The notes under the pieces were generated by a model. It ran no database searches. It saw only the letters and a list, made by a program, of their open reading frames with translations, and was not told the origin of the DNA. DNA of 55,297 bases from Opitutia bacterium (lineage in GTDB: Bacteria > Verrucomicrobiota > Verrucomicrobiia > Opitutales > JANOBW01), in NCBI GenBank assembly GCA_031411855.1, contig JANOBW010000412.1, positions 1-55,297 on the forward strand, read 5' to 3'. Within the stretch, counting starts at the first letter, position 1. Each line of letters starts with the position of its first letter. Of the stretch, positions 1,817-49,359 are shown in pieces. A program made the position numbers and the translations under genes.

Positions 1817-4774
1817 ATGAAACCCTCCCTCCGCCTCACCTCCCTCGTTCCTTCCGCCCGCCTTGGCCTCGCCGCCGCCTTAGCCCTGGCCGGCCTCCAA
1901 GCCCACGCCGCCGATGGCACCTGGATCATCGCCCCCGCCGGCACCACCGCCGTGAACTGGAGCAGCGCCGGCCTCTGGTCCGGCGGCACCGTCGCCGACG
2001 GTGCCGGCTTCACCGCCAGCTTCACGGGCGTGGACATCACCGCCGCCAAGACCGTGACCCTCGATACCGCCCGCACCATCGGCAACATCACCTTCACCGA
2101 CGCGACCACCGCCAACAACAACCTCACCGTCAGCGGGGCCAACACCCTCACCCTGGATGTCGCCACGGGCTCACCCACACTGAACATCACCAACCAGACC
2201 CTCACCATATCGAGCGTGATCGCCGGGACCAAGGGCTTCTCCAAAATCGGGGCCGGCATTCTCAGTCTCTCCGGGGCCAACACCCTCACAGGCCCCATCT
2301 CCGTCAGCGCGGGCACCGTGAACATCATCAATTACGCCGGCCTGGGCGGAACGGTTCCGGGCACCGACGCCCCCTCGTCCATCGCAGTCAGCGGCGGGGC
2401 CAGTCTCAACCTCCAGCAGGTGGGAACCGGCACCACGGTGGACACCAATTACCCCAACCTCAGCCTCGACGGCAACCTCCGCACCACGGGAGGAAGCGGC
2501 ACCAACCAACTTCTCCTTACCTGGGCCGGAAGCGTCACCCTCACCGGCAACAGCCTCATCTGGCCCAATGGCAACGGTGCGATCAGGATATCCGGTCCCA
2601 TAGACCTGGGCTCCAACACCCTGACCTACCAGACCGACGGCAGCATCGGCAGTAACATCATCACCGGTGGCATCATCGGCTCCGGCAATTTGGTCAAGAC
2701 TTCCGGAAACACCCTTTTCCTCAATTCCGCCACCACCTTCACCGGAACCACCACGATCGGCGCGGGCGTCCTTTCCCTCGGCCATCTCACCGCCCTGGCC
2801 AACACCAGCGGCGTCACCATCTCCGGCGGAGCGACCCTTTCCACCAGCGTGGATGCCGTCACGCTCGCCATGCCGATCACCCTGGGGGCCACGGCCACCA
2901 CTTCCACGATCCAGTTCAGCCGCAGCACCGGCGCCGTCGGCTCGATCACCATCAACAGTCTCATCAGCGGCGATGGCAATCTGAGCCTCAGCACACCCAA
3001 TGTGGGCAGCGGGGGCAACATCCAGACCTTCCTCCTCGGCTCGGCCAACACCTACGCGGGCTCCACCACGATCACGACCGCGAACATCAACAACACGACC
3101 ACCATCAAACTTGGTGTCGCCAACGCCCTGCCCGCCACCACGGTGCTCACCATGAACGGCGGAGCTGGCGCAGGCACCGGTCGCACCGTCACCTTCGACC
3201 TCAACGGCTTCGCCCAGACCCTGGCCGGCCTCACCAATGTCACCGGATTGTCCCTCAGAAACCAAAGGGTGACCAACAGCGGGACCCTTGCCACCCTGAC
3301 CATCAACAACGCCGCCAATTTCACCTACGGCGGATTCGTGACCGGCACCACCAACACCTCTTCCACGATCACCGGCAACATCGCCCTGACCAAACAGGGC
3401 GCGGGCACCCTGACCCTCGCCGGCTCCTCCAACTCCTTCAGCGGAGCCACCAAAATCCTCGGCGGCATCCTCAGCCTCGGCCACACCGGTTCCCTGCAAA
3501 ACAGCGTCCTCGACACCCTCAACAGCGTGGTCGGCGACGCCTCCAACGGCCTGCAGACCACCGTGTCGGCCCTGACACTGGGCGGGATCTCCGGCAACAA
3601 GGACCTTGCCTCCGTCTTCACCGCCACCGCCGGCGGCTATGTCGGTTTGACCGCTCTCACACTGAATCCCGCCTCCGGCACGCAAAGTTATTCCGGCGTC
3701 ATCGCCGACGGCGATGCCATGACCCTCACCAAGACGGGCGCGGGCACCCAGGTCCTCTCCGGGGCCAGCACCTACACCGGCGGCACCACCGTTTCCGCCG
3801 GCACCCTCGTGATGGGAAACCCCGCCGCCCTCGGCACCGGCCCGGTCGCCGTCAACGGCGGCACCCTCCGCCTCGATGCCGTCCCCGCCTCCGGACCCAT
3901 CTCCTTGAACTCGGGTGGCACCGTCAATCTGGGCGGCCAGACCCTCGCCAATGCCCTCACCCTTCCCGCCGGTTCCACCCTCACCGGCTCCGGCACCCTC
4001 TCCGCCGCCACCGACACCTGCGCCGCCACCGTCAACCCGGGCGACACCCTCGGCACGATCAGTTTCACCAACGCCGCCCTGGCCCTCTCGGGACCGGCCA
4101 GCCTCGAGATCGGCGGCACCACCAGCGGCACCTACGATACCGTCGCCTCCTCCGGCAGCATCGCCCTCTCCGGAAATGTGACGGTCACCTTCGTCAACAG
4201 CTTCACCCCCGTCGTCGGCAATTCCTGGCATCTTTTCGCGGCCGGCGGCTCCTTTGCCGCCAGCGGAACCCTCACCCTCCCCACGCTGACCGGCAGCCTC
4301 GCCTGGGACACCTCGACCTTCGCCACCACGGGCGTGGTCAGCGTCGTCGCCACCGGGCCGACTTTGGCCGCCTTTAACACGGCCAAGTTCACCGCCGGAG
4401 AACTCTTGGACCCCCTCGTCTCCGGCCCCAACGCCGACCCCGACGGCGACGGCATCAGCAACCTCATGGAATACGCCTTTGCCTCCGAGCCGAAGGTCTC
4501 CAACCGCGCCAACATGCCCGCCTCAAACATCGTCGTGGACACCGGCTCCAGCTACGTCGGATGCGTTTATACCCGGGTGAAAGGGGCCTCCGACCTGACC
4601 TTCACCCCGCAATTCGCCTCCGGTCCCGAGGACGCCTCCTTCTCACCCTCGGCCGCGACCATCCTTGGCATTGTGGACAACGGCAACGGCACCGAAACCG
4701 TCACCCTGCGTGACAACGCTCCCGTCCCGTCGGGAGGCAAACGCTTCGTCCGCATCCAAGTCATCTCCCAGTGA
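1817..4774 (+). CDS. Secreted autotransporter-associated beta-strand repeat protein with C-terminal DPDGDG/EYA...RFVR domain
   Basis: ATG at 1817; signal peptide ending AHA-A; several G(A/T)GTLTLxGxNT(Y/F)xGxTxxxxGxL repeats; no C-terminal beta-barrel; ends ...RFVRIQVISQ. Confidence 0.88.
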   Translation: MKPSLRLTSLVPSARLGLAAALALAGLQAHAADGTWIIAPAGTTAVNWSSAGLWSGGTVADGAGFTASFTGVDITAAKTVTLDTARTIGNITFTDATTANNNLTVSGANTLTLDVATGSPTLNITNQTLTISSVIAGTKGFSKIGAGILSLSGANTLTGPISVSAGTVNIINYAGLGGTVPGTDAPSSIAVSGGASLNLQQVGTGTTVDTNYPNLSLDGNLRTTGGSGTNQLLLTWAGSVTLTGNSLIWPNGNGAIRISGPIDLGSNTLTYQTDGSIGSNIITGGIIGSGNLVKTSGNTLFLNSATTFTGTTTIGAGVLSLGHLTALANTSGVTISGGATLSTSVDAVTLAMPITLGATATTSTIQFSRSTGAVGSITINSLISGDGNLSLSTPNVGSGGNIQTFLLGSANTYAGSTTITTANINNTTTIKLGVANALPATTVLTMNGGAGAGTGRTVTFDLNGFAQTLAGLTNVTGLSLRNQRVTNSGTLATLTINNAANFTYGGFVTGTTNTSSTITGNIALTKQGAGTLTLAGSSNSFSGATKILGGILSLGHTGSLQNSVLDTLNSVVGDASNGLQTTVSALTLGGISGNKDLASVFTATAGGYVGLTALTLNPASGTQSYSGVIADGDAMTLTKTGAGTQVLSGASTYTGGTTVSAGTLVMGNPAALGTGPVAVNGGTLRLDAVPASGPISLNSGGTVNLGGQTLANALTLPAGSTLTGSGTLSAATDTCAATVNPGDTLGTISFTNAALALSGPASLEIGGTTSGTYDTVASSGSIALSGNVTVTFVNSFTPVVGNSWHLFAAGGSFAASGTLTLPTLTGSLAWDTSTFATTGVVSVVATGPTLAAFNTAKFTAGELLDPLVSGPNADPDGDGISNLMEYAFASEPKVSNRANMPASNIVVDTGSSYVGCVYTRVKGASDLTFTPQFASGPEDASFSPSAATILGIVDNGNGTETVTLRDNAPVPSGGKRFVRIQVISQ

Positions 4775-6661: not shown

Positions 6662-6704
6662 TTCGCCCTGACCCAACGGCTTGAAAAACACCCCGCCCCT
6701 ACCC

Positions 6705-9700
6705 ATGAATGATTCCGGCACCACCCCCAACGGCCGCCTCCGCCGACCAGGGACACTCGCCTCCACCCGGGTCTTGTTTCGTCCCGTCGTGTTTTTCGTC
6801 GTGTCGGCGCTGCTAGGCCTGGCCGCCCCCGCTGCGCAGGCCGCCACGAGGTATTGGGACGGCGGGATCGTTGACATCGCGGCCAACGGTGATGGCAACA
6901 GCGACGGCACCAGCGGCACCTGGAACACCACCCTCAAAAACTGGGATCAGGGCAGCGGTCTGGCCCATGTCGCCTGGGTGAATGGCGGCAACGTGGCGGA
7001 CATCAACGGCGCGTCGCAAAACATCACGCTCGGCGCGAATATCATCCTCGGGGGAATGGTTCAAAAATCGGGGGGGACCGTCACCATCAATGCCGGCAGC
7101 GGGCCTTACACCCTCACGTTGAACAATACCGGAGCCAACACCTTCCTGGCGGCCGCCAACACCACCACCGGCAGGACCTTGACGGTGAACGCGGTGATCG
7201 CGGGAGGAGCCGACAAAAATCTGGTTCTGGCCGGCCCGGCCACCTCCGACACCGGCACCATCAATCTGGGAGGTGCCAACACCCACAACGGCACCACCAG
7301 CTTCAGCGCCGGTGCCACGGGCGGCGCCATCGTTTACCTCAAGAACCGGCTCGCGTTGCAGAACAGCACCGTGACCCTGAGCTCGGATGCCAACCTGATC
7401 TTCGACAGCAGCGTGGCCACGGATGCCTTCACCTTCGGCGGCCTGGCCGCCAGCGGCGCCGGCACCGGTTTCAACCTCGCCCTTCGCAACAACGACGCCA
7501 CCAGCTCTCCCATCGCCCTGACCGTGGGTGGAAACAACAACAGCACCACTTACAAGGGTGTGCTCAGCGGGGGCGGTTCGCTCATCAAGACGGGCACTGG
7601 CACCCTGGTTCTCGCCGGGGCCAACACCCACACCGGCACCACCACGGTGAGCGCCGGCACCCTGCAGGTGGACGGCAGCACCGCCAGCCCCACCACGGTC
7701 AGCAGCGGGGCCACCTTGGCCGGAGATGGGTTGGTCAACGGGGCCGTCACCGTGGACGCCGGTGGCGCGATCACGGCCGGGGCCAGCAACCTCACCGTTT
7801 CCAGCCTGACCTTCGGCGGCACGGCCACTGTCAAGGTGGACACCCTTTCCGGCTACACCGGCGCGGCCGCCCTCAAGGTGAACAACTCGCTGACTGTCAG
7901 CGGCGGAGCGGGGGCGGTGACACTCAACCTGCCGACGGCCCTGGGGTTTAACGGCGCCTTCCATCTGATCCAATGCGGCAGCGGCCTCGCCAATGCCAGC
8001 GGCTTCACCCTCGGCACCGTTCCCACCCTCGCCTGGAATCAGACCGGCACCCTGCGGGTCAACGGAAACTATCTGGACTATGTCATCACCGCCGCCGGCG
8101 ACACCACGCCGCCCACCCTGGGCGGCACCCTCCCGGCCAACAACGCCGCCAAGGTGTTGGCCGATGCCGACCTCGTGGCGACCTTCGACGAGACGGTCGT
8201 GCCCGGCAGCGGCAGCATCGAGCTGCGCCGGAGCAGCGATGCCAGCCTGGTCGAATCGTTCAACGTGGCTTCCTCCCCCCGGCTGGTCTTCAGCACCGCG
8301 CAGGTGATCATCCAGCCCACCAATGTCCTCCCCACGGGCCAGAGTTATTACCTGCTGATCCCCGCCGGCGCCATCAAGGATACCTCGGGCAACAGCTACG
8401 CCGGCCTCACCACGAACACGGGCTGGAAGTTCACCGTGCCCGTTCCGCCGGTGCTCTACACGGATACCGGCAGCCCGGCGAACCCGCTGTGGAGCGCCAT
8501 CTTGCCCACGCTGAACGTGGATTCCGCGGACAACGGCCCGGTCTATGGCTCGCTCATCAACGTCAACAACGCCGCCGTTGAGACGGGGCTCTACGGCAAC
8601 CGTCCGATCTCGGTTGGCGCGCTGAGAATCCATGTCGCCTGCAACACCTCCACGTCGAACTTCGCGGATTTCACCCGGTGGTTTCAAACCGACGGGAAGA
8701 CGCATGTCCTCCGGGTTTTTGTCAACGATGAGAACACCGCCACCACACGGGCCGGCACCTCCTCGCACACCGAGGCCTTCACCGCCGATGGCTGGAGTTA
8801 CACCGACTACATGACCTACGAATGGACCGCTCATTACACCATCGCCCGCCTACAGCAGGGCTATTGCTGCTTTCAACTTAAGAACACCGATAATGATTGG
8901 GCGGTTCAGCTCAGCATGGGCACCAATGGTTCGCTGACCGTGAACAATCGCACCGGCACCGACACGGTCGTCACCAATCCCGATGGCAGCGCGAAGAATT
9001 TTGACGGACTCGGTTTCGATGTCCGGGTGCTCGACGACGGCCTGAATTACAAGGTGTGGGTTGACGGTGTGTTGTATGCCTCCAGCAGCTACTCCCGACC
9101 CACCGGAACCACCGCCTTTCGCTGGGGCATGTATTTCGGCGCCAACAAGCTGAACGCCCCGGCCGACTACAACCTCATCCTCGTCAGCGGCGCGCAGGTG
9201 CAATCCTGGCCCGGCACCCTGGCCAAGGCCACCACAGAGATCACCAAGGCCAACAACATGACCAGTCTGGACAACGGGGCCAGCTGGGTGGGAGGCGTGG
9301 ATCCGGGGCTTTACCAACAGGCCGTCTGGAACAGCACGGTCACCGCCGCCAACACGACCACCCTCCCCAGCTATCAGCAATGGGCGGGGCTCAAAATCAC
9401 GAATCCCGGAGGAACGGTGACCCTCAATGGCAGCGCGACCCTCGGCCTTGATGAATCGGGGGTGGATATGACCGCCGCCACGCAGAATCTGACCGTGAAC
9501 TGCCCGGTGCAGATGACAGCCCCAAGCATCTGGAATGTCGCTTCGGGGCGCAAAGCCACCTTCAATGGCATCATCAGCGGCTACGCGGGCCTTATGATGA
9601 GCGGCACGGGAACCATCCAGTTGGAGGCCGCGAACACCTACACCGGCGACACGACCCTGAACGGCGGCATGTTGGTGGCAAACGACAACTCCGCCTTGGG

Positions 9701-11312
9701 TGCCGGCCTGCTTGTGTTCAACGGCGGAAGCTTGTCCAACACCGCGAGTTGCACCCTGGGAAATGACGTGGATTTGCATTCGAATGCCACCGTCAGTGTC
9801 GGCGCGTCGCAAACGCTGACCCTGAATGGTTCCATCGCCGGCAGCGGCTCGCTCACCAAGGGCGACACAGGCACGCTCGTTCTGTCCGGCGAGAACACCT
9901 ACACCGGCGCCACCATCGTCAGCGCTGGCACCCTGGCCATCGGCAACACTTCAGCCCTGCTCCCCACCGCCAGCCTCACGCTGGCCGGCGGGACCCTCCT
10001 GCAACCCAACCTGGATGGAGTGGTCCTCACCGCGCCCATCACGGTGGCCGGCAGCGGCACCACCACCACCATCAGCGCCCCCACCAACGCCCCGGGCGGC
10101 GGGGTCGTCTCCACGCTCACGCTCAAGAGCGTGCTGGCCGGGAGCGGCAACGTCACCTTTTCCAGCAGCCTCAACCAAAACGCCTTGTCCACCGTCTTTC
10201 TCGGCGCGCCCAACACCTACACAGGCAACACCTTGCTGAACACGACCGCCTCCACCGATGGCACGACCACGGCCGGGGAGAATCAGATCATCGTGAAACT
10301 GGGAACGAAAAACGCGCTGCCGACGACCACGGTGCTGACCATTGACGGCGGAAACGGCGGTGGCACCGGCCGGTTTGCCGAGCTCAACTTGAACGGCTTT
10401 GACCAGCAGCTCGCCGGCTTGACCAACATCGTGAGAAGCGGAGCCAAAGCCGCCTTGAGAAAACAGCGTGTCGTCAACAGCAACGTCTCCGCGGCGGCCA
10501 CGCTGACGGTCAGCAACAGCGCCAACCAGACCTTTTCGGGCAACCTGGGGAGCGATGCCGCCAATGGCTCGGTTTCGGCGTCCGCCATGCCGGGGACAAC
10601 GAACGGAAACAACTTCGGCCTGACCAAGGGCGGCGCGGGCACTTTCACCCTCACCGGAGCCAACACCTACACGGGAAACACCACCGTCAACGCCGGCACC
10701 CTTTCCGTCAGCTCCGCTTACCTCGCCGACACCTCCACCGTCTCCATCGCCACCGGAGCGGTCCTCAATGTGAACTTCACCGGCACCGACACCGTCGCCG
10801 CGCTCATCCTCAACGGAGTCCCCCAGCCGGCCGGCGTTTACACCTCGGCCAACTCCGGCGGCCGCCTCACCGGCTCCGGCACACTCACGGTGCCGGTCAG
10901 GTTTGGCACCTTCAACTCCGTCAACTTCACCGCCGTCGAGCTGGCCAACCCCCTCGTCTCCGGCCCCGACGCCGACCCCGATGGCGACGGTGTTTCCAAT
11001 CTCCTCGAATACGCCCTGGGCTCCAACCCCAAGGTTTTCGGCCGGGCCAATCTGCCTGCCTCCCGCACCGTCGTAAACGCCGGCTCGTCCTACCTCGCCT
11101 GCGTTTACACCCGCGTCAAGGGTGCCGGCGACCTCACCTTCTCCGCCGAATTTTCCGCCTCTCCCGATCCCGCGTCCTTCACCGCCAGCGGGGCCACCGT
11201 CATCGGCGTGGTGGACAACGGCAACGGCACCGAAACCGTCACCCTCCGCGACAACACCCCCGCCCCGCCCGGCGGCGCCCGTTTCGTCCGTTTGCGAATC
11301 AACCAGAATTGA
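6705..11312 (+). CDS. Large secreted protein: beta-strand repeats + SbsA/Big_5 Ig-like domain + polysaccharide-lyase-like jelly-roll + beta-strand repeats + DPDGDG/RFVR C-terminal domain
   Basis: Signal peptide (AQA-A). DTTPPTL...ATFDE.V..GSG.I...GAIKDTSGN...WKFT Ig-like at ~8100-8440. HTE / FQLK / AFRWGMY motifs at ~8560-9210. C-terminal domain highly similar to that of the 1817 gene. Confidence 0.85.
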   Translation: MNDSGTTPNGRLRRPGTLASTRVLFRPVVFFVVSALLGLAAPAAQAATRYWDGGIVDIAANGDGNSDGTSGTWNTTLKNWDQGSGLAHVAWVNGGNVADINGASQNITLGANIILGGMVQKSGGTVTINAGSGPYTLTLNNTGANTFLAAANTTTGRTLTVNAVIAGGADKNLVLAGPATSDTGTINLGGANTHNGTTSFSAGATGGAIVYLKNRLALQNSTVTLSSDANLIFDSSVATDAFTFGGLAASGAGTGFNLALRNNDATSSPIALTVGGNNNSTTYKGVLSGGGSLIKTGTGTLVLAGANTHTGTTTVSAGTLQVDGSTASPTTVSSGATLAGDGLVNGAVTVDAGGAITAGASNLTVSSLTFGGTATVKVDTLSGYTGAAALKVNNSLTVSGGAGAVTLNLPTALGFNGAFHLIQCGSGLANASGFTLGTVPTLAWNQTGTLRVNGNYLDYVITAAGDTTPPTLGGTLPANNAAKVLADADLVATFDETVVPGSGSIELRRSSDASLVESFNVASSPRLVFSTAQVIIQPTNVLPTGQSYYLLIPAGAIKDTSGNSYAGLTTNTGWKFTVPVPPVLYTDTGSPANPLWSAILPTLNVDSADNGPVYGSLINVNNAAVETGLYGNRPISVGALRIHVACNTSTSNFADFTRWFQTDGKTHVLRVFVNDENTATTRAGTSSHTEAFTADGWSYTDYMTYEWTAHYTIARLQQGYCCFQLKNTDNDWAVQLSMGTNGSLTVNNRTGTDTVVTNPDGSAKNFDGLGFDVRVLDDGLNYKVWVDGVLYASSSYSRPTGTTAFRWGMYFGANKLNAPADYNLILVSGAQVQSWPGTLAKATTEITKANNMTSLDNGASWVGGVDPGLYQQAVWNSTVTAANTTTLPSYQQWAGLKITNPGGTVTLNGSATLGLDESGVDMTAATQNLTVNCPVQMTAPSIWNVASGRKATFNGIISGYAGLMMSGTGTIQLEAANTYTGDTTLNGGMLVANDNSALGAGLLVFNGGSLSNTASCTLGNDVDLHSNATVSVGASQTLTLNGSIAGSGSLTKGDTGTLVLSGENTYTGATIVSAGTLAIGNTSALLPTASLTLAGGTLLQPNLDGVVLTAPITVAGSGTTTTISAPTNAPGGGVVSTLTLKSVLAGSGNVTFSSSLNQNALSTVFLGAPNTYTGNTLLNTTASTDGTTTAGENQIIVKLGTKNALPTTTVLTIDGGNGGGTGRFAELNLNGFDQQLAGLTNIVRSGAKAALRKQRVVNSNVSAAATLTVSNSANQTFSGNLGSDAANGSVSASAMPGTTNGNNFGLTKGGAGTFTLTGANTYTGNTTVNAGTLSVSSAYLADTSTVSIATGAVLNVNFTGTDTVAALILNGVPQPAGVYTSANSGGRLTGSGTLTVPVRFGTFNSVNFTAVELANPLVSGPDADPDGDGVSNLLEYALGSNPKVFGRANLPASRTVVNAGSSYLACVYTRVKGAGDLTFSAEFSASPDPASFTASGATVIGVVDNGNGTETVTLRDNTPAPPGGARFVRLRINQN

Positions 11313-11378
11313 AAGCCGTGAAGCGGCTGGCAGCTTTGTGACCCCGAACCTCCCCCTTCAACCTTTCAGCTTCACCCC

Positions 11379-12767: not shown

Positions 12768-12794
12768 TCGGACAGCCACCCCTCATCCCTCATA

Positions 12795-13017
12795 ACACCA
12801 TTCCAATTTAGCTTTTGAACTTTCGCTGGCACCCCTACTGGCACCGCCTCCGGAGTGTGGGAAAATCCTGTTCCGGAGGGACAGTTGAGCCTAGCCCGGG
12901 GTCAGGCGCTTGGTGCCGCCACCCCGGGAATCGTCCCAGCATCACCACCGCCCGGGAGGGGCGGCACAACCGAAGTATCCGGAAGTTTAAAGTTAAAAAG
13001 CTAAGCCGGAATGGTAT
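12795..13017. mobile_element. MITE-like repeat, copy 1 (223 bp)
   Basis: Terminal inverted repeats ACACCATTCC...GGAATGGTAT plus subterminal TAGCTTTTGAACTTT/AAAGTTAAAAAGCTA. Collinear (~85% by eye) with the reverse complement of 39628-39850. Confidence 0.8.
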
Positions 13018-39347: not shown

Positions 39348-39627
39348 ACGGATACTATCAAACGAAGTGTTCCGGCCGCGATAATTACTCACTCTGGGTT
39401 TACTGGCCGGTTTTTACGACGCTCGCATAGTCTTGCGACATCCGTTGGAGTTGGCCCAAGCCCGAATGCCCGCACCACTCCCGCCATCAGGTGTGAACTT
39501 CAGGCCTCCGCCGAATAGACAATCGTCGTGGCACGGTGCTACGGTCTGAGCCACACCAAGGTCATGTTGCAACCGTGGCACGATCCTCGCGGTTCCCCAC
39601 CGCGCCCATAACTTCAAAACCACCCTC

Positions 39628-39850
39628 ATACCATTCCGGTCTAGTTTTTTAACTTTAGCCGAATGGATCCTTCGGTTCTGCCGCCCCTCCAGGGCGGTGG
39701 TGATGGTCGGATGATTCCCGGGGTGGCGGCGACAAGCGCCTGACCCCGGGCTAAGCTCAACTGTCCCTCCAGGACAGGCTTTTACGACACCCCGGAGGCG
39801 TTGCCAGAAGGGGTGGCAGCGAAAGTCTAAAAGGTAAGGTGGAATGGTAT
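39628..39850. mobile_element. MITE-like repeat, copy 2 (223 bp, inverted relative to copy 1)
   Basis: Perfect 10-bp TIR ATACCATTCC/GGAATGGTAT; same length as and collinear with 12795-13017. Confidence 0.82.
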
Positions 39851-40350
39851 CATACCCGATCTGGAGGTAGTATTTTCGACCTCTGCCTGGCCCTAGACGA
39901 CCTCACCGGCCCTCCGCCATGAGGTCATTCACAAGAGCCAGTTATCGACTGACAACGGCATGGGATTTCTGACCCGTTGCCTGCTGAGCCAACAGCACTC
40001 CCACCGACGCGCACTTTTTGAAATAACCTTGCGCCGAACTCGAAACCAAACACCACCTAATCAAACCCTAATTCCTAAAACCAACGGGATTAGGTGGAGC
40101 TTTAACGATCGCATCACGGACCTCCTTTTCATACAGACCATTTCAACATCAGCTAGGATCTGGAGCAAATGCTGGAGCGTTGCCGGCAAGTCCATACCCA
40201 CCATCTTCAGCCAAAAGCCCTCCACCACCATTCCCCAGTTGCTACCTTGGCCCCCCGACTCACGCAACCGCACTTCTTCACAAAAAAGAAACAACCACCA
40301 ATGACCTGGCAAGGTGTTGGAAGCCAAACGTTCACAATCACAGGAATTAT

Positions 40351-43300
40351 ATGATTTTCCGTCTTCTTTCCGTAGCACTGATCCATGCAATTTGTTTGGG
40401 TTTTCTGTTTTTGTCCAATGTCCGGGCAGACATCACGGCATCGTTCAACTCCGCCAGCGATGTAGGTGTTGTATCAGCTGGCTACACGGCCTCGGGAACG
40501 GCCAGTTTTTCCCTCAACTTCTCACCTTTGCCCGGCACCGACTTGATGGTGGTTAAAAACACGGAACTTGGGTTCATTAGTGGACGTTTCGACAATCTGG
40601 CCCAAGGGCAGGATCTTGTCCTCACTTATGGAGGAATCAACTATTCCTTCGTGGCCAATTACTACGATGGCACGGGGAACGACCTTGTCCTTGTTTGGAA
40701 ATTCAAAAAGCCGCAGTCCTTGATCAATAATAATTCCGGTCCAGTCCTTGCTACCACTACCGGAGCCCTCTCCGGCAAAACAGTTTTGAGCATGGCCACA
40801 GGCGGGTCCCATTTTCTTGCCCTTTGTTCAGACGGCACCATCGCCGCATGGGGTTCCAATTCTCATGGCCAACTCGGAAACGGAAACACCCTAGTCAGCT
40901 CCGAGCCGGTCGCTGTCACCTCTACCGGAGTTCTTTCCGGAAAAACCATCGTGGCTGTCGCCGCCGGATATTTACACAGTCTGGCCCTCTGCTCGGACGG
41001 CACCGTCGCCGCCTGGGGCATCGCCAATGCTCTGGGCAACAATTCTTCTGGAACATACGCCGTTGCTGAACCAGTTGCAGTAACATCGTCTGGTGCACTC
41101 TCAGGTAAGACTGTTGTTTCTGTGTCCGCCGGTGATACCTTCAGTCTTGCGCTCTGCTCGGACGGCACCCTCGCCGCGTGGGGTTTGAGTTCCTACGGCC
41201 AGCTGGGCAATAACTCTTATTCCTCCAGCGGAGTGCCTGTTGCCGTGACCACCACAGATGCCCTTGCCGGCAAAACCGTCGTTAGTATCTCTGCGGGCCA
41301 ATACCACAGCATGGCTTTGTGCTCGGACGGCTCTGTTTCAACCTGGGGAAGGAATATTTCCGGGCAACTGGGCAACAACACCAAAATCAACAGCACCGTG
41401 CCAGTTGCGGTCGTAAACACCGGCGATCTCTCCGGCAAAACCGTTGTGGCTGTGGCTGCAGGCGAATTACACAGCCTGGCACTGTGTTCGGATGGCACGG
41501 TCTTTTCGTGGGGTAACAACAATAGTGGACAACTTGGAAACGGATCCAAGATTTCGAGTTCGGTGCCCGTCGCTGTCACCACCGCAGGCGTCCTTTCCGG
41601 CAAAACTGTGGTGGCAATTAACGCTGGCAACGCCCGAAGTCTGGCTCTGAGTTCGGATGGTGAGGCTTACATGTGGGGTGGAGGGGTGAGTGAGGTGCCA
41701 GTAGCAGTGTCCTCCATCTCCAAACTTTCCAGTGAAAGATTTGTTAAACTCTCCGTCGGTTCCTTGGGCTCTTTCTCTTTTGTCTTACTTGCCGGACCAC
41801 CAATACCTCAAATAGATGCTCCAACCATAGATACAAAAAGCCCAACGAGCTCTACCTTTGGAGCTAATGTCACCAGTGATTTCGGTAATGCCATCATCGA
41901 GCGTGGTATCGTTTATGCACCCACGGCGATAAACGGTAATCCCACCCTTGGTGGGACGGGAGTAACTAAATTGAGTATAGGTGGCTCTCTCGGCAACTTC
42001 AATGCCGAGGTATCGGGTTTGTCTCCCGGCAACCTCTATAGTATCAGTGCATATGCTTCCAACGCTGCTGGCACCGGCTACTCAAAACCTGTAAGCTTTA
42101 TTCCTTCCCTCGGAAGTGTTGAAAAGACCTTTGGGGACGCTTCGGATGTGGCAGTTACCGTTCAAATCAACGACCCTGTTTTGATTGAAGGTTCGGCTGC
42201 GTTTACCTTAAATTTCTCTCCTCTACCAGGCACTGAGCTGGTGGTTGTCAAAAACACCGGCCTGGGTTTCATCACAGGACGTTACAGCAATCTGGCCCAG
42301 GGACAGGAAGTCATCCTGGACTTCGGTGGTATCAACTACACCTTCGTCGCCCACTACTACGGTGGCACAGGCAACGATCTTGTTCTCGTTTGGAAAAACA
42401 GCCGCCCTATCTCGTGGGGTTGGAATTCTGCGGGACAACTCGGCAATGGTTCCTTTGTCAACAGTTCAGTGCCATTGGCTGTGGTGAATTCAGGAGTGCT
42501 CGCGGGCAAGACCATTGTGGCCTTCGCTTCTGGCTATAGACACACCCTGGCCCTGTGCTCTGATGGCACCGTCGCAGCCTGGGGGGACAACGAATATGGC
42601 CAGCTTGGCAACAGTTCCACCACCGACAGCAGCGTGCCAGTTGCAGTCACTACCTCCGGAGCCCTTGCCGGTAAAACCGTCGTAGCCATCTCTGCCGGGT
42701 ATTACCACAGCCTGGCCCTGTGTTCGGACGGCACCGTCACCACTTGGGGCAGAAACGACTACGGCCAGCTTGGGAACAACTCAATCCCCGCCAGTTTCGT
42801 TCCTGTCACCTTGGCAAATCTTGGCGTCCTTGCCGGTAAAACAGTCGTGGCCATTGCTGCCGGATCTCTCCACAACCTGGCCCTGTGTTCCGACCGCACT
42901 GTTGCTTCCTGGGGTAGAAACGACTATGGTCAACTTGGGAACAACTCCACCACCGACAGCACCGTGCCAGTTGCAGTCCTTGCCGGTAAAACCGTTGCGG
43001 CCATAGCAGCCGGGAGTTCTCACAGTTTCGCTCTGCATTCTGACGGCACCTTGGCTGGCTGGGGGCGTAACGATTACGGCCAGATAGGCAACGATTCCAC
43101 CTCCAATAGTTTGGTGCCGGCAGCCGTTGCGACCGGCACTAACACGGGCACTACCGCCCTTTATCTTAAAACGGTCGTGGCAATTGCCGTTGGTTATGAT
43201 CATACCATCGCCCTGTGTTCGGACGGCACTGTCGCCACTTGGGGAAGCAATTACTACGGTCAGCTTGGCAATAACTCTTCCACCGCCAGCTTGACGCCTG

Positions 43301-46300
43301 TCGCCATCACCACGTCGGGAGTCCTCTCAGGCAAAACGGTCGTGGCCATCTCTGCCGGCTTTACCCATAGCCTCGCCTTGTGTTCGGACGGCAGCGTCGC
43401 TTCCTGGGGCTATGGATTAAATGGCCAGCTTGGGAACAATTCCACCGTCAGCAGTCCCGTGCCTGTCGCCATTAACAACAGCACTTTGACGGTCGGAGAG
43501 CGATTCAACAAAATCACCAGCAGTGCCCGTGCCTCCCTCTCTCTTTCCTTGGCGGCAGCCCCCTTGACACCTGCCTTGTCACTCTTTCCCAAGACAAGCA
43601 ACATCAGTTCCACTGGTGCCACTTTGGGTGGTAATGTCACAAGCGACAACGGCAACGCTATTACCGAACGTGGCTTTGTCTATGCCCCTACGGCCACCAA
43701 CAGCAACCCCGCACTTGGTGGGACGGGCGTGACGAAGCTCACGGTCATGGGCAGCACCGGGGAATTCACCGCCGTGGTCGCCGGTTTGTCCCCTGGGACT
43801 TCCTACAGCTTCAAAGCGTATGCCGTTAACGCCGCAGGCACCGCTTACAGTCAAGCCGGCATCCTGGCCACCTTGGGTCCGGCACCTGTCATAGCCTCCC
43901 CCCCCACCGTTTCCGCAATTTCCGCCCTGGGGGTCACCTTCAGGGGCGAGGTCATCAGCGATGGTGGTTCCACCATCTCCGAACGCGGCGTCGTCCTTGC
44001 CCCCACGGCAACAAACACTAACCCCGTTCTTGGTGGGGTTGCAGTCACCAAGCTCACTGCCGGAAATGGCACTGGAATTTTCACCGTAGAGGCCACCGGC
44101 CTGATACCCGGCACCTCTTACTCTTTCAAAGCCTTCGCCACCAACGCCGCAGGCACCACTTATAGCAGCCTGAGCACCTTCACCCCATCAGTTCAAAGTC
44201 TTTCCAAAGTCTTTGGTGCCTCATCGGAGGTTGGTATCTCACTTGTTTCCTCCACCCCAGTTCAGATTAGCGGCACCGCCTCCCTTTCCCTTAACTTCGC
44301 TCCCCAGCCTGGCACCGAGTTGATGGTGATAAAAAACACCGGTCTTGGCTTCATCTCAGGACGATTTGACAATCTGGCCCATGGCAAGGATGTGATTCTG
44401 TCCTATGGCGGAGTAAACTACTCCTTTGTGGCCAACTACTATGGTGGTTCCGGCAATGATCTAGTCCTCGCCTGGAAAAATATCCATCCGCTCGCCTGGG
44501 GGCTGAATTTTGATGGCCAGCTCGGAAACAATTCCACCTACAACAGCTCACTGCCGGTGGTCGTTACAAAACCTGACGTTCTCTCCGGCAAAACCATGGT
44601 GGGCCTTGCCACCGGCTACTCCCACAGCCTTGGTCTGTGTTCGGACGGCACCGTAGTCGCCTGGGGCAGAAATCAAAACGGCCAGCTTGGAAACAATTTT
44701 CCCGCCGACAGTTTCGTGCCAGTGGCAGTCAACAATACAGGCGTCCTTTCCGGCAAAACGGTTGTGGCCATTGCGGCAGGCTTTTCCCACAATCTTGCTC
44801 TTTGCTCGGATGGCACCATCGCCGCCTGGGGTCTGAATAACCGAGGCCAGCTCGGCAACAACTCCACTGTCGACAGCCCTGTGCCTATAACTGTTGCCGC
44901 CAATGGTGCCCTCACAGGCAAAACCGTCGTTTCTGTAGCCGCCGGTTCCCAACACAGCTTGGCTCTTTGCTCGGACGGAACAATCGCCGCGTGGGGTGGC
45001 AATGATTTTGGCCAGCTCGGCGACAATTCCACCGCTGGCAGTTCTGTGCCCGTTGCCGTCACCACCACAGGCGTGCTTTCTGGCAAAACCGTCGTGACCA
45101 TCTCCGCAGGTTCCTTTCACAGTCTTGCCCTCTGTGCGGACGGCACGGTCGCCACCTGGGGGTTCAACGAGTCCGGCCAGCTTGGCAATAACTCCACCAT
45201 CAGCAGCGCCTTGCCGGTGGCCATTACCAACAACGGTGTGCTTTCCGGCAAAACCGTCGTGGCCATCGCGGCAGGGTTTGCCCACAGCCTTGCCCTGAAA
45301 TCAGACGGCACGGTGGCTTGCTGGGGGCTTAACAGCTCGGGACAGCTTGGCGTCGGTTCCACCACAAACCGTTCCTTGCCCGTTTCAGTTGATGTTTCCG
45401 GCGCCCTTAAAAATAAAACCGTAGTTTCTGTCGCCGCCGGTTATAATCATGCCCTCGTTATCTGCTCCGACGGGACATTGATCTCTTGGGGTAACAACGA
45501 TTACGGCCAGCTTGGCAACGGCACCACGACCTATAGCAGCAGACCCTTGGTCGTCTCCTCTAGCGGATTGGCAACTGGTGAAAGGTTCGCGAAGATGGTC
45601 GTTGGTGCGAGATCCTACCACTCCCTTTCCCTCGTGGCGGAACCTCCCGCTCCAGCCTTGTCGCTCCTCCCCACGTCGGCCAACATATCCAACATCAGTG
45701 CGACTCTTGGGGGCAGCGTTCGCGGCGATGGAGGTTCCCCCGTCATCAAGCGTGGCGTGATCTATGCCGCCACGTCTATAAACAGTGACCCTGTTTTGGG
45801 TGGCACGGGAGTGGCCAAGTCCTCTTCCAGCGGAACGACTGGCGACTTTGCCGTGGATGTCTCCGGTTTGCTCCCCGGCGTCGTATACAGCTTCAAGGCA
45901 TACGCCACGAACGCGGCAGGAACCGCATACTCACAGGCAGGCACCTTTACCACCTTGGGCCCTGCCCCTGCCTTGGCTCCCCCCCCCACGGTAACAAATA
46001 TCTCCTCCCTCAGTGCCACCCTTGGGAGCGATGTCATGAGCATTGGAGCCTCCCCAGTCACAGAACGTGGGCTTATCTACGCGGCCTCTTCGGCAAACGT
46101 AAATCCCATGCTTGGAGGGGCCGGAGTCACCAAGCTCACAGTTAGCGGCGACACCGGAATCTTCACTGTCGTGGCTTCCGGATTGTCTCCCTCCACTTCC
46201 TACAGTTTCAAAGCTTACGCCACAAACGCGAACGGCACCTCCTACACCCAGGTTGGCACCTTCACCACCTTGGGCCAGTATCCTGTGTTCTCTTCTGGCA

Positions 46301-49300
46301 TTCTCCCGAGAGTGGACAATATTACTCCTTTGGGCGCGACCTTAGGGGGTGATGTCTTGAAAGAGGGCGCTTCTTCCATTATCGAACGCGGCTTCGTTTA
46401 TGCCCCCTCTACGGTAAACGACAATCCCTTCCTTGGAGGAATTGGAGTCACCAAGATCACCGTCAGTGGCACTGTGGGAGTCTTTAGCAATGAAGTCATT
46501 GGTTTGTCCCCCGGCACCAACTATAGGTTCAAAGCCTATGCCACCAACGCTGCCGGAACCACCTATGGATCTTCTCGCACTTTTATCACTTTGGGTCCGA
46601 CTCCCCACTTGGAATTAATATCCACAGCGGACAATCTATCCGCTACCAGTGCTTCCCTCAGGGGTGGTGTCATCAGTGATGGTGGTTTCCCCATCACCGA
46701 GCGCGGATTTATCTATGCCCCTTCTGCAAGGAACGGTGATCCTTTGCTGGGAGGCACGGGGGTCAGTATCTTCTCAATCGCTGGTGGCACCGACAGCTTC
46801 TCCTCCATGGTCACCGGTTTGCTCCCTGGCACATCCTACAGTTTCAAAGCCTACTCCACGAACGCCGCAGGCACCACCTACAGCCAGGTGGGCACTTTCA
46901 CCACCACAGGCCCAGCCCCAGTGTTGGTTTCCACACCCACGGCGAATGATTTCACCACATCCAGTGTTACCCTCGGGGGCGAGGTCATTTGGGACAATGG
47001 TTCCACAGTCACCGAGCGTGGCATCGTTCATGCCCCCACGGCAACCAACAGCAACCCCGTCCTTGGTGGGCTAGGTGTCACAAAGCTCTCCGTCAGCGGC
47101 ACCACTGGCGTCTTTACCGCCGAGGTCACCGGCTTGATGCGGGACACATCTTACAGCTTCAAAGCCTTCGCCACCAACGCCGCAGGCACCACTTACACCA
47201 ACTTTGCCACCTTTACACCGTTAATTCAAGACCTCACCAAGACTTTTGGCGCCTCCTCGGAAGTTGGTATCTCCGTTTTTTCCTCCAAACCTGTTTCCAT
47301 CAGCGGCACTGCCTCCCTTTCCCTTAACTTTGTTCCACAGCCAGGCACCGAGTTGGTGGTGACAAAAAATACGGGCCTTGGCTTCATTTCCGGGCGTTTC
47401 GAGAACTTGGCCCAAGGCCAGGATGTGACACTGGTTTACGACGGAATCACTTATTCCTTCGTCGCCAATTATTACGGTGGCTCGGGAAATGATCTCGTCC
47501 TTGTCTGGAAAAACAGACGCCCCTTTGCCTGGGGTGACAACTCATCCGGTCAGATTGGAGACGGCTCCACTGCGGCCAGATCAGTTCCCATCAATGTAAA
47601 CACCACCGGCTATCTCTCCGGCAAAACCGTCGTGGCTGTAGCTGCTGGAACGATCCACAGCCTGGCCCTTTGTTCGGACGGCACGGTCGCAGCCTGGGGT
47701 AACAACTCCAATGGCCAGCTTGGAGACGGTTCCAACACGGCCAGTTCAGTGCCGGTCGCTGTGCACACTGCGGGCGTCCTCTCCGGCAAGACTGTCGTTG
47801 CGGTTGCCGCAGGTTATAACACGAGCTCGGCCCTCTGTTCGGATGGTTCCGTGGTTGCTTGGGGCAGAAATGACTACGGCCAGCTTGGCAACAACTCCCT
47901 CGTCGATCGTGCGGTCCCGGTCGCAGTCACCTCCACGGGTGCGCTTTCCGGCAAAACGTTTGTAGCCATCTCCGTCGGCTACAGGCACAGCCTGGCCCTC
48001 TGTTCGGACGGCACCATCGCTGCCTGGGGCGCCAACTTCTCCGGCCAACTCGGAAACGGTTCTACCGACAACAGTCCCGTGCCGGTCGTGGTAAGTCCCT
48101 CTGGCGTGCTTGCTGGAAGAGCCATCGTTGCCATTTCCGCGGGCGTTAGCCACAATCTTGCCCTCTGTTCGGACGGCACCATCGCCACCTGGGGTGACAA
48201 CTCCTACGGCCAGTTGGGCAACAACTCCACCACAAACAGCCCGGTGCCCGTTGAGGTTTCTGGATCCATTCCCGTCTTTAGCAAAACCCCAGTGGCTATT
48301 TTTGCCGGCGGTGCTCACAGTCACGCACTGTATTCGGATGGAACCGTTGCCTCCTGGGGTTCAAACTCCTATGGCGAGCTCGGAGACAGCTCCACAAGTA
48401 ATAGTTCAGCGCCGGTGGCCGTAAGAATTTCCGGACCTGTTTCCGGAAATCACCCGGTTTTAATCTCCGGAGGTTACAGTCACAGTCTTGCCTTGTGTTC
48501 GGATGGCACTGTCGCGGTTTGGGGAAGTAACTCTAAGGGTCAACTCGGCAACAATTCCGCCTCAGACAGACCCGTGCCAGTCGCGGTTTCTACCAGCGGT
48601 TTGACTACAGGCGAACGCTTCACCCGCATTGCCAGTGGGTCCAGCGCCTATCACTCCCTTGCCTTGGTGGCGTCGTCTCTCGCTCCAGTCGTTTCCACGC
48701 CCACTTTGGATAAAATTAATTCTGGATGGGTTACGTTTGGAGGAAACGTCACCAGCGACAACGGAAATCCCATCACCGAACGAGGCTTCGTTTATGCCCT
48801 CTCAGCAGTGAACAGCAATCCAACCCTCAATGGGGCAGGTGTCAGCAAACTGATCGCCGGTGGCACCACCGGCGTTTTCACTCTAAATGTCACCGGGTTG
48901 ATCACGGAAACTTCCTACAGCTTTAGAGCATACGCCACCAACGCCGCAGGCACCACCTATTCAAGTGTGCCCTCCTTCCTGACACCACCTTTGTCCGACA
49001 CTCTCGCCGACTACCTGGCCGCCGCCGGCATCCCCGTGGCTCAGCGCGGCCCCGACGCCGACCCCGATGGCGACGGCCTCACCAACCTTCTGGAATACGC
49101 CTTGGGTCTTGCACCCAATACCTCAAGCAACAACGGCTTGCCCGACACTGTTTTCGAATCAGGCAACCTCAGCCTCACCTACCGCCAAGCCGTTGGCGAC
49201 GTCAGCTACGTCGTCGAGGTAAGTTCGTTACCTTTCGATACGACAGGCTGGACCAAGGTCGGTGTCAACCAGGGCACACCCGACATCAGTGGTGTCACCA

Positions 49301-49359
49301 AGGCAACGATTCCCGCCACCGGTTCCAGCCGATTCCTACGCCTGCGGGTCACCCGCTGA
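40351..49359 (+). CDS. Giant secreted RCC1-repeat / FN3-like surface protein (~3,000 aa) with DPDGDG/RFLR C-terminal domain
   Basis: Start MIFRLLSVA (signal peptide). Four RCC1 propellers (HSLALCSDGTVAAWGxNxxGQLG), each preceded by a ...ANYYGGxGNDLVLxWK domain; nine FN3-like modules (ERG..YA...GL.PGT.YSFKAYATNAAGT). Confidence 0.9.
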   Translation: MIFRLLSVALIHAICLGFLFLSNVRADITASFNSASDVGVVSAGYTASGTASFSLNFSPLPGTDLMVVKNTELGFISGRFDNLAQGQDLVLTYGGINYSFVANYYDGTGNDLVLVWKFKKPQSLINNNSGPVLATTTGALSGKTVLSMATGGSHFLALCSDGTIAAWGSNSHGQLGNGNTLVSSEPVAVTSTGVLSGKTIVAVAAGYLHSLALCSDGTVAAWGIANALGNNSSGTYAVAEPVAVTSSGALSGKTVVSVSAGDTFSLALCSDGTLAAWGLSSYGQLGNNSYSSSGVPVAVTTTDALAGKTVVSISAGQYHSMALCSDGSVSTWGRNISGQLGNNTKINSTVPVAVVNTGDLSGKTVVAVAAGELHSLALCSDGTVFSWGNNNSGQLGNGSKISSSVPVAVTTAGVLSGKTVVAINAGNARSLALSSDGEAYMWGGGVSEVPVAVSSISKLSSERFVKLSVGSLGSFSFVLLAGPPIPQIDAPTIDTKSPTSSTFGANVTSDFGNAIIERGIVYAPTAINGNPTLGGTGVTKLSIGGSLGNFNAEVSGLSPGNLYSISAYASNAAGTGYSKPVSFIPSLGSVEKTFGDASDVAVTVQINDPVLIEGSAAFTLNFSPLPGTELVVVKNTGLGFITGRYSNLAQGQEVILDFGGINYTFVAHYYGGTGNDLVLVWKNSRPISWGWNSAGQLGNGSFVNSSVPLAVVNSGVLAGKTIVAFASGYRHTLALCSDGTVAAWGDNEYGQLGNSSTTDSSVPVAVTTSGALAGKTVVAISAGYYHSLALCSDGTVTTWGRNDYGQLGNNSIPASFVPVTLANLGVLAGKTVVAIAAGSLHNLALCSDRTVASWGRNDYGQLGNNSTTDSTVPVAVLAGKTVAAIAAGSSHSFALHSDGTLAGWGRNDYGQIGNDSTSNSLVPAAVATGTNTGTTALYLKTVVAIAVGYDHTIALCSDGTVATWGSNYYGQLGNNSSTASLTPVAITTSGVLSGKTVVAISAGFTHSLALCSDGSVASWGYGLNGQLGNNSTVSSPVPVAINNSTLTVGERFNKITSSARASLSLSLAAAPLTPALSLFPKTSNISSTGATLGGNVTSDNGNAITERGFVYAPTATNSNPALGGTGVTKLTVMGSTGEFTAVVAGLSPGTSYSFKAYAVNAAGTAYSQAGILATLGPAPVIASPPTVSAISALGVTFRGEVISDGGSTISERGVVLAPTATNTNPVLGGVAVTKLTAGNGTGIFTVEATGLIPGTSYSFKAFATNAAGTTYSSLSTFTPSVQSLSKVFGASSEVGISLVSSTPVQISGTASLSLNFAPQPGTELMVIKNTGLGFISGRFDNLAHGKDVILSYGGVNYSFVANYYGGSGNDLVLAWKNIHPLAWGLNFDGQLGNNSTYNSSLPVVVTKPDVLSGKTMVGLATGYSHSLGLCSDGTVVAWGRNQNGQLGNNFPADSFVPVAVNNTGVLSGKTVVAIAAGFSHNLALCSDGTIAAWGLNNRGQLGNNSTVDSPVPITVAANGALTGKTVVSVAAGSQHSLALCSDGTIAAWGGNDFGQLGDNSTAGSSVPVAVTTTGVLSGKTVVTISAGSFHSLALCADGTVATWGFNESGQLGNNSTISSALPVAITNNGVLSGKTVVAIAAGFAHSLALKSDGTVACWGLNSSGQLGVGSTTNRSLPVSVDVSGALKNKTVVSVAAGYNHALVICSDGTLISWGNNDYGQLGNGTTTYSSRPLVVSSSGLATGERFAKMVVGARSYHSLSLVAEPPAPALSLLPTSANISNISATLGGSVRGDGGSPVIKRGVIYAATSINSDPVLGGTGVAKSSSSGTTGDFAVDVSGLLPGVVYSFKAYATNAAGTAYSQAGTFTTLGPAPALAPPPTVTNISSLSATLGSDVMSIGASPVTERGLIYAASSANVNPMLGGAGVTKLTVSGDTGIFTVVASGLSPSTSYSFKAYATNANGTSYTQVGTFTTLGQYPVFSSGILPRVDNITPLGATLGGDVLKEGASSIIERGFVYAPSTVNDNPFLGGIGVTKITVSGTVGVFSNEVIGLSPGTNYRFKAYATNAAGTTYGSSRTFITLGPTPHLELISTADNLSATSASLRGGVISDGGFPITERGFIYAPSARNGDPLLGGTGVSIFSIAGGTDSFSSMVTGLLPGTSYSFKAYSTNAAGTTYSQVGTFTTTGPAPVLVSTPTANDFTTSSVTLGGEVIWDNGSTVTERGIVHAPTATNSNPVLGGLGVTKLSVSGTTGVFTAEVTGLMRDTSYSFKAFATNAAGTTYTNFATFTPLIQDLTKTFGASSEVGISVFSSKPVSISGTASLSLNFVPQPGTELVVTKNTGLGFISGRFENLAQGQDVTLVYDGITYSFVANYYGGSGNDLVLVWKNRRPFAWGDNSSGQIGDGSTAARSVPINVNTTGYLSGKTVVAVAAGTIHSLALCSDGTVAAWGNNSNGQLGDGSNTASSVPVAVHTAGVLSGKTVVAVAAGYNTSSALCSDGSVVAWGRNDYGQLGNNSLVDRAVPVAVTSTGALSGKTFVAISVGYRHSLALCSDGTIAAWGANFSGQLGNGSTDNSPVPVVVSPSGVLAGRAIVAISAGVSHNLALCSDGTIATWGDNSYGQLGNNSTTNSPVPVEVSGSIPVFSKTPVAIFAGGAHSHALYSDGTVASWGSNSYGELGDSSTSNSSAPVAVRISGPVSGNHPVLISGGYSHSLALCSDGTVAVWGSNSKGQLGNNSASDRPVPVAVSTSGLTTGERFTRIASGSSAYHSLALVASSLAPVVSTPTLDKINSGWVTFGGNVTSDNGNPITERGFVYALSAVNSNPTLNGAGVSKLIAGGTTGVFTLNVTGLITETSYSFRAYATNAAGTTYSSVPSFLTPPLSDTLADYLAAAGIPVAQRGPDADPDGDGLTNLLEYALGLAPNTSSNNGLPDTVFESGNLSLTYRQAVGDVSYVVEVSSLPFDTTGWTKVGVNQGTPDISGVTKATIPATGSSRFLRLRVTR

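Follow-up and report, generated by a model that had tools for sequence, protein, structure and literature searches.

A C-terminal domain on unrelated exported proteins of Verrucomicrobiota, a candidate docking or retention module

Why do a beta-strand-repeat protein, a sulfatase and a giant repeat protein of one bacterium end in the same kind of domain? This question is raised by a stretch of 55,297 nucleotides from an Opitutia bacterium (contig JANOBW010000412.1 of assembly GCA_031411855.1), hereafter called the window, which is one entire contig (C412) of a 5.1-Mb genome that lies on 516 contigs and is 80% complete. Four open reading frames (ORFs) of the window carry a C-terminal domain of about 130 amino acids, referred to here as the tail, behind otherwise unrelated proteins, referred to as passengers. 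The results described below support the tail as a real, portable domain on unrelated Sec-type exported proteins with a strong preference for the C-terminus, and its features are consistent with a module that may dock or retain exported proteins at the cell envelope.

All four genes lie on the forward strand. The first (1811..4774, likely start methionine at 1817) encodes a PATR beta-strand-repeat protein (PF12951, 5.4e-25) with a signal peptide, and its tail (4340..4771; profile matches at 4331-4768 and 4352-4765) is composed of helices, a TSP3-like loop and an immunoglobulin (Ig)-like sandwich; the C-terminal stretch reads ADPDGDGISNLMEYAFASEP...RFVRIQVISQ* in translation. The second gene (6681..11312, likely start methionine at 6705) encodes a PATR + Big_5 protein, as assigned by Pfam, with a signal peptide, and the tail at 10878..11309 closes the stretch ADPDGDGVSNLLEYALGSNP...RFVRLRINQN*; this copy was the one modelled by AlphaFold (predicted local distance difference test, pLDDT, 92.8). 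The third gene (15860..17683) encodes a sulfatase (PF00884, 1.2e-38) with a signal peptide, and its tail (17234..17680; profile match at 17234-17677), which contains ADADHDG and is the most divergent of the four, closes the stretch ADADHDGYANRLEYAAGTDP...RFFRLGLSEE*. The fourth gene (40180..49359, likely start methionine at 40351) encodes a giant RCC1/fn3 protein (Pfam), also with a signal peptide, in which the tail (48940..49356; profile match at 48952-49356) ends the stretch ADPDGDGLTNLLEYALGLAP...RFLRLRVTR*. Profile searches found only these four tails on the contig.

The earlier note on this DNA, made from the sequence alone, had described most of these features, and its description held. 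The translations show that all four ORFs end in a tail of about 130 amino acids with the motif AD[PA]D[GH]DGxxNxxEYAx[GA]xxP (4/4), that RF[VFL]R[LI] lies near the stop in 4/4 tails and is followed by 4-5 more residues, and that the N-termini are signal-peptide-like in 4/4 proteins. According to Pfam, the passengers belong to three unrelated families (PATR and PATR + Big_5; Sulfatase; RCC1/fn3). As noted before, the two other sulfatases of the window do not have the tail: the ORFs at 11379..12767 and 17903..19402, both on the forward strand, end after the sulfatase/SGSH_C region and gave no tail-profile match. No autotransporter barrel was found by Pfam in the four proteins, the two PATR proteins having PATR repeats and the tail as their C-terminus, so the tail differs from type V secretion, where a C-terminal beta-barrel translocator is present. 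The statement that the proteins have no transmembrane helix is borne out past residue 60 in three of them, in which the highest 19-residue Kyte-Doolittle mean was 1.21-1.44, and is borderline in the RCC1 giant (1.75), where the most hydrophobic segment sits at residue 2577, outside the tail.

We compared the tails with each other and with related sequences of the same genome. Identity is 60% between the two PATR tails and 28-29% between the first PATR tail and each of the other two. In BLASTP, the second PATR tail matched the sulfatase tail across 135 residues (E 3e-10) and the RCC1 tail (E 6e-18), and the match between the RCC1 tail and the sulfatase tail was weak (E 0.024). A leave-out profile was built from 26 tails from elsewhere in the genome, with the four tails of the window excluded (Z = 42,550 ORFs), and this profile recovered copy 1 at E 2.1e-52, copy 2 at 9.1e-51, copy 4 at 6.2e-27 and copy 3 at 1.5e-12. 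Judged from sequence, the tails of the four proteins are homologous, with a similarity far past chance.

The four tails belong to a large family in this genome. Searching the six-frame ORFs with a four-tail profile at E<1e-3 gave 130 domains in 125 ORFs, of which 95 were near-full, and 90/95 of these end no more than 5 residues from the stop; a separate profile search of the genome's contigs gave 132 tail matches. With a refined profile built from 30 tails (alignment A2), 146 domains were found in 137 ORFs, including 109 near-full copies; 101 of these stop no more than 5 residues short of the ORF end, 2 stop 6-20 residues short and 6 lie deeper in the protein. The position is similar in the best loci of other genomes, where 84/95 near-full copies come to within 5 residues of the stop; in 7 the distance is 6-20 residues, and in 4 it is larger. 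Among the best 150 global library matches, a list that favours multi-copy proteins since these score higher, 34 are TSP3 arrays without the sandwich; the remaining 116 carry the domain, and their last copy closes the protein in 104 cases, lies within 20 residues of the end in 4 and is internal in 8, with 2-4 tandem copies in 30/116. Overall, about 6-8% of tail copies are internal. In addition, the F-x-R motif is present in 95/100 terminal copies of the genome, and the stop follows 5-6 residues past the Arg in 81/95. The earlier note had called the domain portable and strictly C-terminal; portability stands, since the passengers are unrelated exported proteins, and strictness does not, since 8/109 copies lie more than 5 residues from the end.

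The tails of the genome have diverged widely, with a median pairwise identity of 30% and only 4.9% of pairs above 50%. When tails were at least 60% identical, the passengers were BLAST-similar in 72/84 pairs, and when tails were 45-60% identical, in 85/195 pairs. Tail similarity therefore tracks passenger similarity only in part, which indicates that both gene duplication and domain shuffling took place. The N-terminal side of 28/93 tail genes is cut by a contig end, and the number of tail proteins is thus a lower bound; the long, repetitive tail-bearing genes seem to be a main cause of the fragmented assembly. Two short N-complete ORFs (contigs C241 and C420) were considered as stand-alone proteins of signal peptide and tail, and were set aside because they look like pieces of larger genes.

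Internal copies stand ahead of quite different domains. A 453-aa protein (contig C247, 3823-5181) consists of a signal peptide, a tail-type domain and an FGE-sulfatase (formylglycine-generating-enzyme-like) domain, and gives sub-threshold matches to GldK/PorK, which share the FGE-sulfatase domain. Another protein combines LamG, the tail, a methyltransferase and a PQQ propeller (C405), a third endonuclease I, the tail and four cadherin-like domains (C493), and two more have SdrD_B repeats, the tail and the beginning of a TIGR02597 domain (C180 and C392); in two proteins of other genomes the tail is followed by a complete TIGR02597. These internal copies, together with the tandem arrays, show that the domain folds, and presumably works, without a free C-terminus. 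A 2915-aa adhesin with tandem-95 repeats, encoded in another genome of this order (locus L160, 2-8746), has a sandwich-only end (...ARFYRADAD) without the calcium-loop part; this end was missed by the tail profile, so the sandwich family is wider than the profile shows.

The passengers are diverse and of an extracellular type, and their N-termini point to export. With a crude heuristic of our own (a start codon, a basic stretch, then a hydrophobic stretch), signal-peptide-like starts were called in 52/65 N-complete tail genes compared to 838/3371 other genes. In 20 further ORFs of the genome, the passenger families assigned by Pfam include FG-GAP, He_PIG, BNR + CBM96, cyclophilin + fn3, metallophosphatase + fn3, HbpS-like and InlB-type repeats, and 7/20 had no Pfam family. 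Repeat or adhesin passengers among 48 tail ORFs of other genomes include DUF5122 propellers, Calx-beta, PATR, RCC1, PKD, cohesin and LamG, and the enzymes include LTD + CotH, GH5 + CBM2, glucose/sorbosone dehydrogenase (GSDH), peptidases M23, M11 and C10, multicopper oxidase, FAD oxidoreductase + Golvesin_C, a beta-lactamase-fold hydrolase and an aspartyl-protease-like domain; 13/48 had no Pfam family. One tail protein carries a choice-of-anchor D domain. The tail regions themselves have no family in common.

To describe the fold, we used an AlphaFold2 model of tail copy 2 (pLDDT 92.8; predicted template modelling score, pTM, 0.83). Short helices are predicted at residues 9-16, 19-22 and 25-28, followed by the DxDxDG loop with a helix at 41-46, and these helices and the TSP3-like loop are packed on an Ig-like sandwich of six strands (61-143) that run to the C-terminus. 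The last strand has the consensus F-x-R-[LIV]-x-V. In an alignment of 30 tails, the columns that never vary are D, D, D, G, N, E, A and P in the loop region together with a single Arg in the last strand, and a second Arg, a Phe and a Tyr are nearly invariant. The DxDxDG stretch, for which calcium binding had been proposed, is indeed a TSP3-type calcium-loop motif that scores below threshold to PF18884; from known TSP3-type loops, we infer that the DxDxDGxxNxxE loop binds calcium. TSP3_bac (PF18884) resembles the tail in having DxDxDGxxNxxE, which lies at the tail start (8/30 tails at E<=1, best 3.3e-5, with internal relatives passing the cut-off), whereas the tail has a single motif fused to a sandwich that lies outside that model, and true TSP3 arrays form a separate set, being the 34 sandwich-free proteins among the best 150 global matches.

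Structure searches placed the sandwich in a common class. Foldseek with the tail model gave no match at E<=1e-3. The matches listed by VIA-align were Ig/Fn3-like sandwiches only, with best Z of 7.8-7.9, flagged by the tool as a common arrangement: tail residues ~57-144 match cytokine-receptor and major histocompatibility complex Ig-like domains (Z 7.8-7.9, root-mean-square deviation 2.9-3.1, 81-82 residues), and Fn3-like modules of glycoside hydrolases follow at Z 5.3-5.9. The tail differs from these in that Z stays below 8, no sequence relation is seen, no Pfam fn3 match falls on the tails, six strands are predicted instead of seven, and the position is terminal with a calcium loop attached.

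We then asked whether the domain has a name. No entry of Pfam or NCBIfam covers it, either with the four window tails or with 30 tails at E<=1, so the suspicion that the tail is unnamed was correct for these two libraries. The window tails matched only TSP3_bac, CFSR and the Amuc_1099 family (in its TSP3-like stretch), all below threshold; against TSP3_bac, two of them scored 15.8 and 18.6 bits compared to a 25-bit cut-off, and the other two gave no match. Across the 30 tails, matches at E<=1 were to CFSR (15/30), TIGR04203 (12/30), NF042425 (11/30) and TSP3_bac (8/30). CFSR (PF19079; best 4.8e-4), TIGR04203, NF042425 and Invasin_D3 (1/30) were rejected as sub-threshold matches at the level of a motif. 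For NF042425, the Amuc_1099 family of pilus-like system proteins, the best score was 24.7 bits compared to the 50 needed, and only profile positions 126-156, a TSP3-like motif, were covered. Sorting-domain models of Pfam and NCBIfam matched none of the 30 tails at E<=1. The sole match of a PDB sequence search was Amoebiasin-1 (E 0.12), which was taken as chance, and the matches in the protein Atlas were unnamed clusters, commonest in Verrucomicrobiota. A literature search across titles and abstract openings found nothing on the tail domain or on TIGR02597, nor on how Verrucomicrobiota keep enzymes and adhesins at the surface. The tail deserves its own family model in domain libraries, which would end the blank annotation of such regions.

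The domain was found well beyond this genome. Within the same order it is present in 18/41 genomes (E<=1e-5), the richest of which has 82 matches, and in a sample of the phylum, in which up to 13 candidates were scored per genome, it is present in 105/301 genomes at E<=1e-8. Some families of this sample are split for the tail, one of them with 12/26 genomes positive. A scan of one genome per species gave at least 521 confirmed stretches. All but three of the best 79 loci, which include named MAGs of Opitutus, Luteolibacter, Prosthecobacter and Akkermansia, bear the labels of Verrucomicrobiota lineages (Opitutales, Chthoniobacterales, Verrucomicrobiales including Akkermansia, Luteolibacter and Prosthecobacter, Pedosphaera and Limisphaerales), and the other three are one Lentisphaerota MAG (metagenome-assembled genome), one unclassified bacterium and a partial match on a MAG contig labelled Enterobacteriaceae. 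In a library of 1.84 billion proteins, 37,729 representatives matched at E<=1e-3, 13,043 at 1e-10 and 189 at 1e-30. As far as these sequence searches go, the domain is specific to the phylum Verrucomicrobiota and common across Verrucomicrobia. In soil, water and the gut, the last being where Akkermansia belongs, Verrucomicrobiota rank among the major degraders of complex and of sulfated polysaccharides. A single unnamed module marks up to more than 100 exported proteins per genome and thousands of public protein clusters; it offers a simple prediction of the exported or surface proteome of the phylum, a candidate handle for protein display on Verrucomicrobiota, and a defined entry point (tail, calcium loop and F-x-R strand) toward a partner or pathway.

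What does the tail do? The reading that we favour, and that we hold to have about an even chance of being right, is that exported proteins share the tail as a module for docking or retention, and that it is not a sorting peptide which is clipped off. The tail is a self-folding domain of about 130 residues, in which three short helices and a single TSP3-type DxDxDGxxNxxE loop lie against a six-strand Ig/Fn3-like sandwich, and it has been added, nearly always at the extreme C-terminus, to Sec-exported proteins. It would hold diverse exoenzymes and adhesin-like giants to a common component of the cell envelope, such as a surface glycan or an anchor protein, and would probably be retained on the mature protein and not cleaved off. 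The results above show the family, its fold model, its position, its passengers and its distribution; the surface location, the docking and the identity of the partner are, like the binding of calcium, what we infer here. Tandem (2-4) and internal copies are more in keeping with a folded module for binding or docking than with a clipped signal. Enzymes with unrelated substrates carry the tail, and the GH5 enzyme with the tail has its own CBM2, so the tail is unlikely to be the substrate binder of that enzyme; these passengers speak for a single target shared by all, for example the surface of the cell itself. Dockerins and the PPC/collagen-binding domains of secreted proteases are C-terminal, sometimes tandem, calcium-dependent binding or docking modules; the likeness to the tail is functional only, with no tail matching PF04151 or dockerin in Pfam, and one passenger (locus L059) has its own PPC domain besides the tail.

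Several results weigh against a docking or retention module. No family recurs among the neighbours within three genes of 180 tail genes (678 proteins; largest cluster 7/678). The loop motif is degenerate or missing in 18/91 copies, 17 of which are still terminal, so calcium binding is not essential to all copies. The only fold matches are generic Ig/Fn3 ones, with a best Z of 7.9. The signal-peptide heuristic is home-made and has a 25% background. A signal that depends on a free C-terminus would likewise explain the extreme C-terminal bias and the constant, short spacing to the end, and the link to TIGR02597, described below, is occasional: genes of this family fetched without regard to tails had an upstream tail gene in 0/31 cases.

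The alternative that survives best, though we consider it rather unlikely, is that the tail plays no part in sorting and is an Ig-like end module that either binds a ligand or is purely structural. It could, for example, be a calcium-dependent binder of glycan or substrate, as the C-terminal PPC/collagen-binding domains of secreted proteases are, or else a stabilising cap. The generic Ig/Fn3 fold, the calcium-loop motif beside the sandwich, and the tandem arrays and internal copies would all be expected of such a module, many passengers are polysaccharide-active enzymes and adhesins, and machinery was not found near tail genes. An ordinary Ig spacer or carbohydrate-binding module is disfavoured because about 90% of the copies are terminal, which is not how ordinary Ig/Fn3 spacers and carbohydrate-binding modules are confined, because most proteins have a single copy, and because the enzymes act on unrelated substrates: the same tail is found on a nuclease, a phosphatase, a sulfatase, peptidases, a multicopper oxidase and a cyclophilin as well as on the GH5 enzyme with CBM2.

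A further alternative, which we regard as unlikely, is a true C-terminal secretion or sorting signal that functions like the C-terminal domain (CTD) of the type IX secretion system (T9SS), with a translocon or sortase encoded elsewhere that recognises the folded tail, exports the cargo or attaches it covalently, and possibly removes the tail. Many Sec-exported enzymes and adhesins that are unrelated to one another end in the T9SS CTD, a small beta-sandwich present in tens to more than 100 copies per genome; it is confined to one lineage, its machinery is encoded apart from the cargo genes, and it is removed by a sortase-like peptidase, with attachment to lipopolysaccharide. The tail resembles the type A CTD of Bacteroidota (TIGR04183 / PF18962) in its C-terminal position with a predicted Ig-like sandwich, the diverse cargo with signal peptides, the high copy number (up to 132 matches in one genome), the restriction to one lineage and the distance of any machinery, and the terminal position of 101/109, 84/95 and 104/116 copies is what such a signal would show. 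The choice-of-anchor D domain on one tail protein is in line with it too. The differences are that 0/30 tails match TIGR04183 / PF18962 at E<=1 and no TIGR04183 match lies anywhere in the genome, that the tail, at about 130 residues large for a pure signal, has an extra helical and TSP3 calcium-loop part and occurs in a different phylum, and that it has internal and 2-4 tandem copies instead of being single and always terminal. Neither the T9SS translocon SprA (TIGR04189) nor Por_Secre_tail was found in the 80%-complete genome, in a search to which no positive control responded, the control genomes likewise giving no SprA match; T9SS CTD structures were absent from the 50 fold-search matches listed for the tail model. 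The survey of neighbours of the 180 tail genes identified no cognate transporter or sortase, in agreement with the earlier suggestion that any machinery is encoded elsewhere and not beside the tail genes. Copies in tandem or at internal sites, the large domain size and the lack of a machinery lead disfavour a strict sorting signal, and the clipped, strictly terminal form of the idea has against it that 8/109 copies lie more than 5 residues from the end, that internal copies stand ahead of other domains and that 30/116 proteins have tandem copies.

The genome does contain a known C-terminal sorting system, PEP-CTERM/exosortase (PF07589, TIGR02595; PF09721), with 34 PEP-CTERM matches and exosortases present. 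In this genome, proteins of the PATR family bear one or the other of the two tags at the C-terminus, in some cases in adjacent genes, an alternation that counts for the docking reading and would also suit a sorting role of the tail. In the window, a PATR protein ending in PEP-CTERM is encoded directly upstream of the first tail gene (61..1770, forward strand; PF12951, 5.9e-18; PF07589 at residues 540-562, 1678-1746). The two differ in that PEP-CTERM is a 24-residue motif with a membrane helix and a basic cluster, whereas the tail is a folded soluble domain without any of these, and the 34 PEP-CTERM proteins, including window ORF 61-1770, are proteins other than the tail proteins. PEP-CTERM genes were also tried as neighbours of tail genes: 9/34 lie within 5 kb of a tail gene compared to 5.9 expected, and 70/500 random draws reach 9, which is not significant. 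In the phylum sample, all 105 tail-positive genomes are among the 220/301 with an exosortase (lists compared by eye). This co-occurrence, which counts weakly for a sorting signal as the genomes are related, proves little because both features follow phylogeny.

The boldest version, which we consider quite improbable, makes the tail the signal that cargo proteins would carry for a pathway of surface display or secretion in Verrucomicrobiota that has not been described before and would functionally correspond to type IX secretion. In one concrete form of it, tails would dock onto secreted TIGR02597-type adaptors. TIGR02597 is a secreted protein whose model consists of small beta-barrels (pLDDT 78), with the best structural match (Z 8.5) to phage tail-tip and EF-Tu domain-II-like barrels. 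It is present in 38/301 genomes, 36 of which are also tail-positive, and four proteins have the tail joined N-terminally to a TIGR02597 domain. A tail gene lies directly upstream of TIGR02597 in 6/39 loci, all six chosen after the adjacency was noticed. As a general receptor, TIGR02597 was rejected: the adjacency held in 6/8 loci at first and then in 0/31, and 69 tail-positive genomes of the sample have no TIGR02597 at 1e-8. The fusions, the six adjacencies and the nested occurrence are a lead for a subset of tail proteins and do not represent the general mechanism. The gene next after TIGR02597 encodes a small PEP-CTERM protein of 180-265 aa in 28/39 loci (for example on contig C510, 1263-8401), and 8/8 aligned proteins downstream of TIGR02597 end in VPEP...RRR. 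If the adaptor version is true, TIGR02597-type adaptors, encoded beside small PEP-CTERM proteins, would tie the tails to the exosortase system.

An artefact from chance similarity, low-complexity sequence or assembly chimeras, for which the fragmented assembly of 516 contigs with 28/93 tail genes cut by contig ends might speak, has a negligible probability and is refuted by leave-out E-values as low as 2e-52, the presence of the domain in 105/301 other genomes with closed ones included, the 13,043 cluster representatives at E<=1e-10 and the confident fold model.

At positions 4964-19402 and 37587-52790, the window looks like a region for polysaccharide utilisation, with three sulfatases, an esterase/BD-FAE protein, an FAD oxidoreductase, two alpha-L-rhamnosidase-type genes, a 3-keto-disaccharide hydrolase and an F5/8 type C protein, and this gene set suggests a substrate that is sulfated and contains rhamnose. 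The G+C content falls to 0.55-0.57 across the giant RCC1/fn3 gene (40001-50000) compared to 0.62-0.68 elsewhere in the window, which could reflect either foreign origin or the codon make-up of its Ser/Thr/Asn/Gly-rich repeats. In addition, in the 942-aa protein encoded at 30157-32985, a GSDH-like propeller remnant is combined with HEAT repeats and a cytochrome c domain. This ORF adjoins an F5/8 type C + DUF7133 ORF (29047-30096), and the two are possibly one gene split by the choice of ORFs.

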